The notes: generated by a model from the sequence alone, not told the origin. Shown: positions 1,850 through 6,454, counted from the stretch's first letter. The stretch is DNA of 32,000 nt from Candidatus Saganbacteria bacterium (GCA_026387835.1 JAPLKZ010000005.1:1-32000), one strand, 5' to 3'. Numbers and translations are program-made.

Positions 1850-3205
1850 TCAAACGCCTTCCGGTGTTTTGTCCTTTTTTCTAAGCGCGGTCATTACTCT
1901 TCTGTACCTCAAAAGCCCGCCAAGGCTGACAAGTCCGAAAAAGGACAATGCCGTTCCCGCGAAATTAAGCGGATCGGATAAATAAGCCAGAAGATCAAAT
2001 CCTTTAGCGCCACCCGCTTTGCTTGCGGCACGAACAGATGGTACCGGCGCGGCAGCAGCAGCGGTCTCCAACGGACGTGAAGCGGTGATCGCCGGTGTTT
2101 TTAAGATCGTCTTTGCGGCTATTGCTGCCGGTTTGACAATTTCTCCGGGAACGGTTTCAGGCACGGCTGCCAAGGCCGGTCCCTTAGGTGCGGATAGGCT
2201 TGCGGTCTTTGTCTTGAGGCTTTCCCCGAAGGAAGGCGGGAGAAGGGTTACTGAGACATAATGTGTTATATTTTCAGAGCCTTCGTGATACGGATGATAT
2301 GCATAATCTACTTGAATAAACCCCAGCCGCAGTCCGACACCGAACGTCGGATCTGAAGAAACTTTTGTATCTGAGGCTGCGCTGAGCGACTGATCGATCC
2401 CTCCCCTCAAAATCAAGATAGGATGTATCATCCATTCCACACCGGCATGCATCAACGAAGGCACATTTCTGGATACATAGGTGTCCCTGTCGACTTCTAC
2501 TTTTAATTTATTATCAAGCAGATTGACAGCTGCGCCGGCTTTCACAACACAGGGAATGCTTTCGTATACCCCGTTATACCAGTTCATCCTGCCGCCGCTT
2601 TCGACAGGCAGTACGTTTTGCGCCACGGCCCCAAGGCTTAGCCAGTTAAAAGGCGTGAATTTAGCGCCTACATCAAGGTCCTTCCCGAGCCCGGATGCGG
2701 CAAACGAACCGGTAAATCCTTCATCAAAGACTTTTGCGCTGGCGCCGACACTGAGAGCTTCGTTAAGTTTAGCGGCAGCAGTAACGACATACAAATTGTT
2801 ATGATAATCAAAATAGCTAAATCCTGTCTGAGAAGGCGAGGGGATATTAGTAACCTGGGACCCAACGGCTCCGATGCCCAGGGCGCCCTCTATCCCGCCA
2901 AGATTGAACGGTGTCGCGACCGCGAGTGTCGCATAAGGGATATCATTAAGCACGTTGGAATACATCGAGAGCATCGTCCACGATTTTATCGATGCCAGCC
3001 CGGCAGGATTCATGAAGATGGAGCTGGCGTCATCTGCCGAAGCTACGAATGCTTTTCCCATGCCCATCGGTCTTGCGCCGACACCTATCTTCATAGGATC
3101 TTCCTGGATACCTACCACCGTCAGGGCAAGTAAAGGTCTTATTTGCGATATCAACATTGTGCAAACGATCAAGGTAAAAATAATACATCTATTTAATGTA
3201 TTCAT
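1850..3205 (-). CDS. PorV/FadL-like outer-membrane beta-barrel protein with Ala/Pro-rich C-terminal extension and terminal hydrophobic anchor
   Basis: There is a signal peptide. The N-terminal motif GVGARPMGMGKAFVASADDASSIFMNPAGLA is typical of PorV/PorQ-type barrels. The barrel-like part ends ...VSVTLLPPSF. About 110 aa of Ala/Pro-rich linker follows, then SDPLNFAGTALSFFGLVSLGGLLRYRR. The start overlaps the upstream stop in an ATGA. Confidence 0.55.
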   Translation of the reverse strand: MNTLNRCIIFTLIVCTMLISQIRPLLALTVVGIQEDPMKIGVGARPMGMGKAFVASADDASSIFMNPAGLASIKSWTMLSMYSNVLNDIPYATLAVATPFNLGGIEGALGIGAVGSQVTNIPSPSQTGFSYFDYHNNLYVVTAAAKLNEALSVGASAKVFDEGFTGSFAASGLGKDLDVGAKFTPFNWLSLGAVAQNVLPVESGGRMNWYNGVYESIPCVVKAGAAVNLLDNKLKVEVDRDTYVSRNVPSLMHAGVEWMIHPILILRGGIDQSLSAASDTKVSSDPTFGVGLRLGFIQVDYAYHPYHEGSENITHYVSVTLLPPSFGESLKTKTASLSAPKGPALAAVPETVPGEIVKPAAIAAKTILKTPAITASRPLETAAAAAPVPSVRAASKAGGAKGFDLLAYLSDPLNFAGTALSFFGLVSLGGLLRYRRVMTALRKKDKTPEGV

Positions 3206-4039: not shown

Positions 4040-6454
4040 TTATTTATACTCGTGAATAATTATAACTCCATTAGCGCCTACACCACCCGTTGCAGTCGTA
4101 TCGGTACCACTAATTCTGAAGCATGCTCCTCCTGCACCTCCGCTTCCATATAATGCTCCTGCGGTTCCTGTAACAGCAATTGCAGTAGTAGGGACATAAA
4201 CACAAATGCTCTGGGAACCATACAAAGAAGCGCCTCCTGCACCAGAGATACCAAGCGTTCCTGACATGCGATATCCGGATCCGCCTGTACTGCCATCAAT
4301 ATTGACATCACCCGTAGTGCCCGCTGCACCTCCGGCCCCACCAGAAGCAGTTAAAATCGTAGATCCACTGGCCATAGTCGTCCCTCCACCACCTCCATTT
4401 GCGGTAATTGATGTTCCATCAAATTGAGTTTGGCCTCCAACTGAACCAGACCCAGGACTTCCTCCAGCACCTCCCGTGCCTACTACGAAAGTAAATGTAG
4501 ATCCACCGCTTGTTGCGATCCGCTTTGATGTGTAGGCACCGCCACCCCCTCCGCCTCCGGCAGCAGCCTTAGTGTTAGTTGTTATAGCAGTTCCTCCTGC
4601 GCCGCCGCCACCCCCACCAATCAATTCAACTTCAATAACCGTTACATCTGCTGGTACAGTATACGGACTCAAGCTTGGTAATGTAATCCTCGAAAGAACA
4701 CCAAGATTTGTTAAAGTGTTGCTAGTGGCGGAAATTGTCTTGTTGGTCAATGTCTGCACAGCATCAAGCGTTACCACATTTGTTGTTAATATGGCATCAG
4801 GCAATGTCCCGGTTGTAATTTTTGATGCATCAAGATTTGGAATTGTGCCGGCTGACAGGGAAATACTATTGTTAGTATCAGATATGGTTTTATTTTTAAA
4901 GGTATTAACTGACTCCGCGGTGACAACACCTGAAATTTTAGAGCCCGCAAGAGATGTTATCCAAGCCGGATCAGCATACGAGCCATTAGAATAGACACCG
5001 TTGGTGACAGTTGTCGCGTTGTTTGCGGAAGTTGCCGAGGTCGCTGTCGCGGCGTTCCCGGAAATATCTATACTATACGACCCCGTTAGTATCCCTGATG
5101 CCAATGTTCCTGTTGTAATTTTTGATGCATCAAGATTTGGAATTGTGCCGGCTGACAGGGAAATACTATTGTTAGTATCGGAGATAGTTTTATTCTTAAA
5201 GGTATTAGCTGATTCCGCGGTGACAACACCTGAGATCTTAGAGCCCGCAAGAGATGTTATCCAAGCCGGATCAGCATACGAGCCATTAGAATAGACACCG
5301 TTGGTGACAGTTGTCGCGTTGTTTGCGGAAGTTGCCGAGGTCGCTGTCGCGGCGTTCCCGGAAATATTTCCTGAGATCTTTGAACCTGCAAGCAATGTTA
5401 TCCAGGCCGGATCAGCATAGGACTCGGTTGTGAGGACGCCGTTCGTTACCGTGATCCCTGTCAGATTGGAACCATCAACAGCTGGTAGTTTTGCTGTTCC
5501 GTCTAATTGGATGAGTTTGCCGGGAGCGTTAAAAGAGTTCCCCTGTGTTGTGACGTTTGTGGAGAGTCTGGAATCCGAAACATTTCCCGCAGTCGCTGAA
5601 TTGATCGCTGCTATTGCACTTTGACCTGCTGCATCAGAAGTGGCCAGAAGATTTGCCGTTATCGCGGTCGTGGCAGAAGTAGCCGCGCCTCCCTTGCTCG
5701 ATGATCCGGCATAGTTAAAATTCGCCATCGTAGAATCTACTGTAACGACATCTGTTCCGCCTGTCTGGTGTGAAGAAGCGTGCGCGCCGGGAAGAGTAGT
5801 CCCAACGACTTTGCTTCCGGAAATGCTGACTATCTTTGCATCTGTTACCGACGCATCAGCAATTTTTGATGTTGTAACAGATCCGTCTGCAATAGAAGCC
5901 GCGGCTATCCCCGTCAACTTTGATCCGTCACCCGAGAAAGCATCAGCAGTGACAATGCCTGTGACAGTTATTCCTCCGGTAAGGGTGCCGCCTGATTTCA
6001 GCAGATAATTTGAAGCCGCGACTCCCGCAAGGTTATCGGAATCGGATGATTTGAAAGCATAGGGGGCCGTTACCAGCTGCATGCGGGGAGCCAGGGTCTC
6101 TCCCGCTATCGTGAGCTCAAGGTACGCATCGCTCCCGTTGAATACCAAAGCGTTGATGGGATCGCTGTTGCTGCCCAGGAGTGCCGAAAAGGTGCCGTGG
6201 CTCTCCGGCACTATATTATATGTAGAGGAGGTCCACAGTGCCGTTCCGCCTGTCAGGCCGTCGTAGATCTTAAAGGTTACTGCCTTTGTTGTGGTAACGG
6301 GGTTTCCCGCAGTATCGACAAGCCTGCCTTCGTAGCTTATCCTTGTCGGGATACTTGCTGAAGCTACTGATGTGATGACCGAGACCGGGACAAATAAAAC
6401 CGCTACCAAGATGAACAAGGGTACAAGCTTAGACAACAGATTAGAGTTCAACAT
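4040..6454 (-). CDS. Large secreted tail-fibre-like surface protein with internal 100 aa repeats and C-terminal glycine-rich domain
   Basis: There is a signal peptide. An N-terminal module, IPTRISYEGRLVDTAGNPV...FKIYDGLTGGTALW...APYA, is like those in fibre/adhesin-type proteins. The 100 aa unit containing ADPAWITSLAGSKISG is repeated. The C-terminal ~190 aa has poly-Gly blocks (GGGGGGAGG, GGGGGGG, NGGGGG) and ends ...GVIIIHEYK. Confidence 0.7.
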   Translation of the reverse strand: MLNSNLLSKLVPLFILVAVLFVPVSVITSVASASIPTRISYEGRLVDTAGNPVTTTKAVTFKIYDGLTGGTALWTSSTYNIVPESHGTFSALLGSNSDPINALVFNGSDAYLELTIAGETLAPRMQLVTAPYAFKSSDSDNLAGVAASNYLLKSGGTLTGGITVTGIVTADAFSGDGSKLTGIAAASIADGSVTTSKIADASVTDAKIVSISGSKVVGTTLPGAHASSHQTGGTDVVTVDSTMANFNYAGSSSKGGAATSATTAITANLLATSDAAGQSAIAAINSATAGNVSDSRLSTNVTTQGNSFNAPGKLIQLDGTAKLPAVDGSNLTGITVTNGVLTTESYADPAWITLLAGSKISGNISGNAATATSATSANNATTVTNGVYSNGSYADPAWITSLAGSKISGVVTAESANTFKNKTISDTNNSISLSAGTIPNLDASKITTGTLASGILTGSYSIDISGNAATATSATSANNATTVTNGVYSNGSYADPAWITSLAGSKISGVVTAESVNTFKNKTISDTNNSISLSAGTIPNLDASKITTGTLPDAILTTNVVTLDAVQTLTNKTISATSNTLTNLGVLSRITLPSLSPYTVPADVTVIEVELIGGGGGGAGGTAITTNTKAAAGGGGGGGAYTSKRIATSGGSTFTFVVGTGGAGGSPGSGSVGGQTQFDGTSITANGGGGGTTMASGSTILTASGGAGGAAGTTGDVNIDGSTGGSGYRMSGTLGISGAGGASLYGSQSICVYVPTTAIAVTGTAGALYGSGGAGGACFRISGTDTTATGGVGANGVIIIHEYK
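4797..5432. repeat. Tandem 300 bp in-frame repeat (2 near-identical copies plus a diverged partial third)
   Basis: 4797-5068 matches 5097-5368 with only a few mismatches, and the last ~140 nt are identical. 5368-5432 is a diverged partial copy of the unit. Confidence 0.9.

Follow-up and report, generated by a model that had tools for sequence, protein, structure and literature searches.

The window, the 32,000-nucleotide stretch of Candidatus Saganbacteria DNA analysed here (GCA_026387835.1, JAPLKZ010000005.1:1-32000), contains three consecutive minus-strand genes, taken to be co-transcribed, that encode, in order of transcription, a tail-fibre-like protein of 804 aa, a small protein of 257 aa with a C-terminal domain (CTD) resembling type IX secretion system (T9SS) CTDs, and a PorV-like outer-membrane barrel of 451 aa. 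The locus raises the question of what a CTD protein and a PorV-type barrel do next to a fibre gene in a genome in which the T9SS core is not recognised. The original prediction, made from the sequence alone, regarded the small protein as a cargo coupled to its own barrel in a minimal dedicated export or surface-attachment module, positioned behind a tail-fibre-like giant. The three open reading frames (ORFs) are found with the predicted lengths, order and positions. The reading favoured here is that they form a cassette of barrel, adaptor and fibre for mounting fibres on the cell surface, a proposal whose chances we judge to be evenly balanced; such a cassette would probably mount adhesive fibres. 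The evidence that carries it is the family membership of the barrel and the CTD, and a three-way synteny that is conserved in two phyla.

The source organism is an uncultured relative of the cyanobacteria (Saganbacteria/Margulisbacteria) with a genome of 1.5 Mb in 13 contigs that is 95% complete, and contig 12 begins with the window. Source records assign barrel homologues to Candidatus Margulisiibacteriota or Saganbacteria.

The barrel protein

The 451-aa protein matches the NCBIfam model PorV_fam (NF033709) over model positions 7-323 of 326 with 88.7 bits (E 5e-25), and with 90.5 bits in the genome scan, where neighbouring segments are included, so that its score sits at the curated cut-off of 90 bits. 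The Pfam FadL model Toluene_X gives only 16.5 bits. The equivalog models for PorV, PorQ and 'PorV2' (NF033710, NF033711 and NF052325) score 16.4, 41.5 and 68.9 bits, below their cut-offs of 250, 220 and 325. When a profile of 67 barrel sequences is compared with the PDB, Flavobacterium PorV is retrieved with an E-value of 4e-22 and TbuX and TodX with 2e-5 to 1e-4. The AlphaFold2 (AF2) model has a predicted local distance difference test (pLDDT) score of 81.9, with barrel residues above 90, and contains 14 long strands as well as a plug at the N-terminus that is built from the conserved GVGARPMGMGKAF...NPAGLA motif. Foldseek ranks the PorV entries 8gl6_F and 6h3i_F first (E 1e-11, TM-score 0.65, root-mean-square deviation (rmsd) 4.7), followed by TbuX, FadL and TodX (rmsd 7-10, E 1e-9 to 1e-8). 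The barrel is therefore PorV/PorQ-like and not FadL-like, as the original prediction had proposed, and a FadL identity was rejected since PorV comes first both by profile against the PDB and by Foldseek.

A reading of the barrel as a hydrophobic-compound channel of the FadL type, encoded among unrelated neighbours, is highly improbable. It has the 14-strand barrel and N-terminal plug of FadL, TodX and TbuX, and both the common fold seen by Foldseek and the weak Toluene_X match speak for such a channel. PorV is nevertheless ahead by 17 orders of magnitude in the sequence profile, the gene order and the overlap with the CTD gene are conserved, and FadL-type channels are without a CTD partner gene or the periplasmic wall-binding tail described next.

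The tail that follows the barrel domain is composed of a Pro/Ala-rich linker of about 90 aa, a hydrophobic helix of 18 residues (aa 415-432, approximately 1910-1963) and a basic end, RYRRVMTALRKKDK; AF2 models a disordered linker and then helices. The helix is read as a putative inner-membrane anchor with its end in the cytoplasm because of the positive-inside rule. No NCBIfam model of a known C-terminal sorting domain matches this helix tail. Orthologous barrels have three SLH domains, SPOR or LysM in its place, or lack a tail altogether, and the Elusimicrobia barrels carry HEAT-like repeats in the tail. A CTD protein of 918 aa encoded outside the window (C12:202315-205071, L092) continues after its CTD with a linker rich in Gly and a helical tail, GLVTLDAMMRFYRVIKKIKKR, that is closely like the barrel tail GLVSLGGLLRYRRVMTALRKK; among all ORFs examined, the motif occurs in these two proteins only. 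The public gene call for the barrel begins at an internal Met38 (414 aa), so the signal peptide is missed, and the long form is favoured because the paralogues and the conserved gene overlap agree with it.

The small CTD protein

The gene preceding the barrel gene encodes the 257-aa protein, for which both Pfam matches are sub-threshold (TIG, 16.8 bits with a cut-off of 20.9; FlgD_ig, 16.7 bits with a cut-off of 27). Its CTD is recognised at the level of the family. Seven homologues were found by a word-based search, and the orthologues are 276-304 aa long and alike over their whole length. FlgD_ig matches all seven aligned family members, the window copy included. A profile built from 11 family CTDs retrieves from the PDB the PorU CTD first (6za2, residues 1059-1152, E 2e-5), then immunoglobulin-like (Ig) domains of FlgD, then PorZ. 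At E < 0.1, Pfam identifies FlgD_ig in 10 of these 11 CTDs, Por_Secre_tail in eight and CHU_C in six. Three paralogous CTDs of the same genome exceed TIGR04183 with 27-30 bits (cut-off 23). Judged from its sequence, the family CTD is a relative of the T9SS type-A CTD (TIGR04183/PF18962) and of FlgD_ig (PF13860), with an apparently truncated copy in the window; the likeness to FlgD-Ig and T9SS CTDs that had been claimed earlier thus holds for the family, and the window copy itself remains sub-threshold.

The start of the gene is less clear. The longest ORF opens at a TTG codon and reads MAGILIVVAAGQIWA, without a charged n-region and with a poor signal peptide. The ATG at 4001 yields MKKRLIGTALAGILIVVAAGQIWA, a canonical signal peptide, only with a -1 shift or a seventh A in the run of six that follows it. 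All orthologues open with a signal peptide of the MKK/MKR type. The public gene call gives a protein of 224 aa from an internal Met start and no signal peptide.

The 257-aa protein is probably a barrel-fibre adaptor rather than a cargo, because it has no effector domain and its Elusimicrobia counterparts are made up of nothing but a CTD preceded by a signal peptide and some 70 residues rich in Gly, Ser and Thr. Of the earlier description as a CTD-bearing cargo, the CTD is retained here and the cargo is not.

Conservation of the gene order

The ATGA in which the stop codon of the 257-aa gene and the start codon of the barrel gene overlap was confirmed in the sequence, and the two genes are translationally coupled. 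In the 64-nt gap between the 804-aa and 257-aa genes, neither a promoter-like nor a terminator-like site is present. The genome encodes nine PorV-like barrels and seven CTD proteins, and four of the seven CTD genes (those for proteins of 257, 973, 513 and 1355 aa) are the immediate upstream neighbours of four of the nine barrels on the same strand, with junctions that are overlaps of 4 or 19 nt or a gap of 21 nt. In the same genome, other barrels are partnered by adhesin-like proteins of 513-1355 aa with a CTD of their own, and these 'fused' pairs support a reading in which the small protein is a detachable CTD module.

Across the phylum, the barrel is found in 118 of 146 genomes, with 4-18 matches per genome in the class of the window (genomes of 1.2-2 Mb) and 0-3 in the other classes. 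Within the best loci of relatives, a CTD gene ends at the start of the barrel gene in 26 of 29, with the exact 4-nt overlap in 16. Of 15 loci taken with wider flanks, 14 encode an orthologue of the 257-aa TIG-CTD protein over its full length, and the fibre N-domain stands beside the pair, upstream or downstream, in nine of these 15; most of the remaining neighbours are fibre-like too. Several Saganbacteria (L037, L039, L047, L064, L066, L068) contain tandem adaptor-barrel pairs in the order CTD protein, barrel, CTD protein, barrel.

A reverse search with the fibre N-domain as the sole query (an alignment of four sequences, one genome per species) returned 15 loci. In Elusimicrobia, loci L072-L075 and L080 encode in succession a barrel, a small CTD protein (177-374 aa) and a fibre; both Margulisbacteria loci have the order CTD protein, barrel, fibre; and two short contigs encode a CTD protein and then a fibre. 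Compared between the phyla, the CTDs share 28% identity (E 7e-8), and the barrels share about 30% in the region of the plug. On metagenome contigs, small Por_Secre_tail proteins of 171-174 aa alternate with fibre genes. The three-way synteny of the cassette is conserved in two phyla, the Saganbacteria/Margulisbacteria and the Elusimicrobia. Genes neighbouring the fibre were also counted within 3 kb in a census of 51 genomes of the class containing 47 fibre genes: a CTD gene was present beside 27, a barrel beside 24 and both beside 21, and many of the remainder are located at contig ends. By rough estimate, uncomputed, the chance expectation given about 10 barrels per 1.5 Mb is a few percent.

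These counts bear on a two-part module, in which the 257-aa TIG-CTD protein is a cargo displayed on its private PorV-like barrel and the fibre is merely a co-transcribed neighbour. We consider this explanation rather unlikely. The 4-nt overlap of CTD gene and barrel gene is the tightest linkage in Saganbacteria, and in several loci the neighbouring giant is without a detectable fibre N-domain. Against such a module, an Ig spacer is the only domain that the small protein possesses besides its CTD and the Elusimicrobia counterparts are without even this spacer, the fibre N-domain alone retrieved the trio in two phyla, and a fibre adjoins the small CTD protein also where a barrel is lacking.

The fibre protein

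The first gene of the cassette encodes an 804-aa protein with a signal peptide, a conserved N-domain (approximately aa 34-140), a shaft that contains two repeats of about 100 aa when read in translation, and a glycine-rich tip. PHROG tail-fibre families match it with 104 bits (phrog_863) and 64 bits (phrog_6202), and the tail fibre of cyanophage Pam3 aligns to the glycine-rich tip with an E-value of 3e-5. The 804-aa protein is therefore phage-tail-fibre-like, in agreement with the original prediction; it is treated here not as a bystander but as the third conserved member of the cassette. A prophage origin of the fibre was rejected because the flanks are housekeeping genes, namely those encoding a DnaJ-like protein, Fic, MiaB, Prs and homoserine dehydrogenase (Hom). 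No phage genes other than the fibre flank the cassette, and the GC content is even across the window.

The NCBIfam model Bdello_MAT_N (NF053851), for the N-domain of the mosaic adhesive trimer (MAT) fibres of Bdellovibrio, matches each of the eight sequences aligned for the N-domain family (best E 3e-12). The 804-aa protein itself scores 24.1-24.8 bits, below the cut-off of 60. By these profile scores, the fibre N-domain is a distant relative of the Bdellovibrio MAT N-domain and not a member of that family. In the relative G092, a fibre encoded upstream of an orthologous adaptor-barrel pair (L058:5396-8170) has an end that, judged by eye, resembles an S74-type intramolecular chaperone; this end would parallel the S74 subfamily of the Bdellovibrio MAT fibres.

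Search for type IX secretion genes

The original prediction noted no other T9SS genes in 32 kb, and this holds for the whole genome as regards SprA, PorU and GldL/M/N. For SprA/Sov, nothing in the genome exceeds the cut-off of 200 bits and four repeat-type matches of about 20 bits each are the only ones; among the 146 genomes of the phylum none reaches the cut-off, the best score being 51 bits. The PorU model is matched in its CTD part only, by CTD-bearing proteins of the genome, with a maximum of 56 bits (cut-off 420). GldK finds generic FGE-sulfatase domains only, at most 63 bits (cut-off 350). GldL, GldM and GldN have no match in the 95% complete genome; the control genomes were themselves without a T9SS and so do not show how sensitive the GldN search is. 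Because genes for a BamA-like protein and for two secretins occur in the genome, the cell is regarded as diderm with other outer-membrane routes. Recognisable T9SS core genes are absent from this genome, and the cassette is not a T9SS member because the defining core parts were searched for and not found.

Two SprA-like proteins came out of these searches. The first is a conserved outer-membrane protein of 1342 aa encoded outside the window (C6:71199-75227, L091), with a signal peptide, four 'GNNTRGPYSL...DYTIDY..GKITF' repeats, a barrel-like C-terminal half and the end ...EGTINF. Its sole NCBIfam match is SprA, with 61.9 bits summed over model positions 593-672, and its gene is convergent to a neighbouring CTD-protein gene (C6:69190-71157). 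Frames of about 1330-1440 aa with a like SprA match exist in most genomes of the class. The second is an ORF of 1735-1810 aa that each cassette-bearing Elusimicrobia genome holds (L087:1064-6454, L088:249-5681, L089:1499-6706, L090:1168-6594), with collinear SprA/Sov matches over four model regions that, at 122.5 bits (E 1e-35), fall short of the 200-bit cut-off. These matches may point to a remote SprA-like translocon in Elusimicrobia, for which no T9SS is described. The 1342-aa protein has no detectable similarity to the Elusimicrobia ORFs by phmmer or to SprA in the PDB, and homology of those ORFs to any protein of this genome was rejected, as phmmer found none.

Both proteins enter into another explanation, an undescribed outer-membrane export route in which the barrel is a carrier that draws adaptor and fibre from a translocon, as a stripped-down T9SS relative without the PorLMKN motor. 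The conserved 1342-aa protein with SprA-type repeats or one of the two secretins would be a candidate for the translocon. PorV and SprF are carriers in the T9SS (PMC10994853, PMC12635249), the cassette-bearing Elusimicrobia have their SprA-collinear ORF, the 1342-aa protein with its SprA-only match through four repeats is encoded next to a CTD-protein gene, and secretins and BamA are available. This route is nonetheless unlikely: both SprA-like matches lie under the curated cut-off, the Saganbacteria protein covers a single repeated segment of the model and is unlike both the Elusimicrobia ORFs and SprA of the PDB, GldL/M/N and PorU were not found in the genome, and peptidoglycan-binding tails point to barrels that are static and not shuttling. 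The evidence supports attachment and not translocation, and of the export or surface-attachment module first proposed only the attachment half is retained.

A mounting model and its weak points

In the proposed surface-fibre mounting cassette, the C-terminal tail of the barrel would stay in the periplasm and fix the barrel to the envelope. The tails of orthologous barrels would grip peptidoglycan through their SLH, LysM or SPOR domains, and in the window barrel the Pro/Ala linker and helix probably reach the inner membrane. The 257-aa adaptor would be made 1:1 with the barrel through coupling, and its CTD would dock on the surface loops of the barrel in the manner of PorU on PorV, PorZ on PorQ or type-B cargo on SprF/PorP. 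The Ser-rich N-terminal segment and Ig spacer of the adaptor would hold the N-domain of a trimeric 804-aa fibre, and this fibre, itself without a CTD, would display its variable glycine-rich tip. We infer the physical contacts, the surface exposure and the crossing of the outer membrane by adaptor and fibre.

Several observations weigh against this model. A plugged barrel of 14 strands cannot on its own account for a folded fibre at the surface. The window CTD is below curated thresholds, was also missed by TIGR04183 in the genome scan, and is without the 14 residues directly after PNPFNP that every orthologue and paralogue possesses, a deletion that would remove the first strand of the seven-strand sandwich typical of T9SS type-A CTDs, which are Ig-like (PMC11285876). 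The AF2 model of the 257-aa protein is poor, with a pLDDT of 49 overall and 55-70 in the CTD, and the start of the protein, on the reading frames described above, is doubtful. Since the start looks frameshifted and the CTD has the 14-aa deletion, the adaptor copy of this genome may be impaired; an assembly error, decay or slippage could underlie these two features. Roughly one in two fibre genes of the class stands apart from any barrel or adaptor, in part owing to contig ends, and some fibre homologues elsewhere are without either partner. Lastly, the 918-aa protein has its CTD before a membrane helix, which fits a periplasmic location of such CTDs.

This last point also belongs to a different explanation, that the adaptor-barrel pair is an element of envelope structure without surface display, in which barrel and tail would fasten the outer membrane to the wall or the inner membrane, with the CTD protein as their partner in the periplasm. 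The SLH, LysM, SPOR or membrane-helix tails, the very large number of barrels per genome and the inner-membrane-type helix after the CTD of the 918-aa paralogue would all suit such a role. Yet CTDs bind extracellular PorV loops in solved complexes (PMC10994853), and the barrels are partnered by adhesin-like giants and by tail-fibre-like proteins whose tips vary, as is typical of exposed proteins, so we regard this explanation as very unlikely. The three outcomes that the original prediction had listed as telling against its own proposal, namely grouping of the barrel with FadL, failure of the CTD in profile searches and loss of synteny in relatives, were not found.

Comparison with known systems

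To our knowledge, docking of a CTD on a barrel of the PorV, PorQ or SprF type is known solely as a late step of the T9SS in Bacteroidota. Reviews describe the T9SS as restricted to Bacteroidota and the Fibrobacterota-Chlorobiota-Bacteroidota (FCB) group, and nothing relevant was found in the literature searched on PorV or the T9SS in Margulisbacteria, Saganbacteria or Elusimicrobia. In the T9SS attachment complex of Porphyromonas gingivalis, anchoring occurs through PorU:PorV and PorZ:PorQ (PMC5562754, PMC10947112), and the CTD binds extracellular loops of PorV (PMC10994853). The cassette resembles these pairs in that a type-A-like CTD would be retained by a surface protein and held on a PorV/PorQ-family barrel; its CTD family profile is closest to the PorU CTD and its barrel is closest to PorV. 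It differs in that this genome is without SprA, the PorU sortase, PorZ and PorLMKN. Neither PorV nor PorQ is orthologous to the cassette barrel (16 and 41 bits, with cut-offs of 250 and 220), which has a periplasmic tail. The genes lie next to each other and are coupled in translation, and the CTD protein is probably a small adaptor with a separate fibre as the likely payload.

Type-B systems are the SprB-SprF system of Flavobacterium johnsoniae and PG1035-PorP-PorE of P. gingivalis (PMC12618676, PMC9143113, PMC12635249). In them the gene for the dedicated carrier lies directly downstream of that for the cargo, and anchoring to the wall is through PorE (PMC12618676, PMC12635249). The cassette shares with them the carrier gene directly downstream of the CTD-protein gene and, in the proposed model, a cargo that remains on its own barrel and a complex that is tied by a C-terminal tail to peptidoglycan or a periplasmic partner. 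In contrast to them, the cassette barrel belongs to the PorV/PorQ family and not PorP/SprF, the CTD is type-A/FlgD-Ig-like and not type B, wall binding is a function of the barrel protein itself and not of a separate PorE, and no recognisable translocon or gliding track accompanies the cassette.

The MAT fibres of Bdellovibrio bacteriovorus are likewise secreted trimer-type fibres with a conserved N-domain, a phage-tail-fibre-like shaft and swappable tips (PMC10769870), and an S74 chaperone end is seen by eye in the tips of some relatives of the cassette fibre. The match between them is distant (24.8 bits, cut-off 60), and the Saganbacteria host is no known predator. The MAT N-domain is predicted to be at the cell surface and to bind a still unidentified element there (PMC10769870), whereas a candidate partner, adaptor plus barrel, is encoded beside the cassette fibre. 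This raises the more general idea that a barrel with a small CTD adaptor is a surface socket for MAT-type adhesins, perhaps also exporting them, without a type IX translocon or motor and common to Margulisbacteria and Elusimicrobia; we put it forward as speculative and somewhat unlikely.

Features of the locus and neighbouring sequences

The coordinates of the features are collected in Table 1. Both the sigma-70-like promoter and the distal site D claimed upstream of the 804-aa gene are present as motifs. Downstream of the TATAAT, the sequence AAGGAGG, a strong ribosome-binding site, precedes the ATG of the 804-aa gene at 6454. By pattern search, TGAAAT-N16-CGAYA occurs at five sites in the window with 0.2 expected (6597-6623, 15392-15418, 18232-18258, 27476-27502 and 30979-31005), each upstream of a gene or operon.

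Table 1. Positions of the cassette genes, their domains and nearby signals, counted from the first letter of the window
Feature	Position	Strand	Basis or remark
Fibre gene, 804 aa	4040-6454	-	ORF; secreted, chimeric, tail-fibre-like: signal peptide, conserved N-domain, repeat shaft, glycine-rich tip
Fibre N-domain, ~aa 34-140, proposed docking end	6035-6355	-	Distant Bdello_MAT_N relative; own-genome match
Glycine-rich C-terminal tip, aa 597-800	4055-4666	-	Pfam Gly_rich_2 (PF21722), 40.5 bits, cut-off 24.3
Small CTD protein gene, 257 aa	3202-3975	-	ORF; Ser-rich segment, TIG-like Ig domain, CTD with 14-aa deletion
TIG-like Ig domain of the 257-aa protein	~3520-3747	-	Sub-threshold Pfam TIG
T9SS/FlgD-Ig-type CTD of the 257-aa protein	~3208-3456	-	Family-level profiles; 14-aa deletion
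Out-of-frame ATG (4001) and A6 run just upstream of the 257-aa ORF	3993-4001	-	Sequence reading
ATGA stop/start overlap, 257-aa gene to barrel gene	3202-3205	-	Read as ...GTA AAA TGA / ATG AAT ACA
Barrel gene, 451 aa	1850-3205	-	ORF
Outer-membrane barrel domain of PorV/PorQ type, 14 strands, plug motif at the N-terminus, aa 38-320	2246-3094	-	Profiles, AF2, Foldseek
C-terminal periplasmic tail of the barrel, residues 321-451	1853-2245	-	Sequence and AF2
Sigma-70-like promoter TTTGCA-16-(TG)TATAAT	6504-6531	-	Upstream of the 804-aa gene; consensus match only
Distal promoter-like motif TGAAAT-N16-CGATA	6597-6623	-	~143 nt upstream of the fibre start codon; pattern search

Elsewhere in the genome, short FGE-sulfatase genes with a GldK-like C-terminal domain are located at four contig ends (C8:36516-36908, C9:24-416, C3:8-355, C4:8-355). 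Short copies at four contig ends suggest a multi-copy family that breaks the assembly.

Significance

The locus places a CTD and a PorV-type barrel in phyla without a described T9SS, and translocon, motor and sortase were not found in the genomes. The cassette is a testable candidate for the means by which tail-fibre-like adhesins are fixed on a diderm surface, and one genome holds the 'split' version, with adaptor and fibre, beside the 'fused' version, in which an adhesin has its own CTD. The variety of barrel tails (SLH, LysM, SPOR, HEAT, membrane helix) illustrates ways in which fibres may be attached to one or another layer of the envelope. The cassette also bears on the origin of T9SS parts. 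If the socket reading is true, it would predict the anchor of the prey-recognition fibres of Bdellovibrio, and it would suggest that the docking of a CTD on PorV is older and more widespread than the T9SS, by which it was recruited later.

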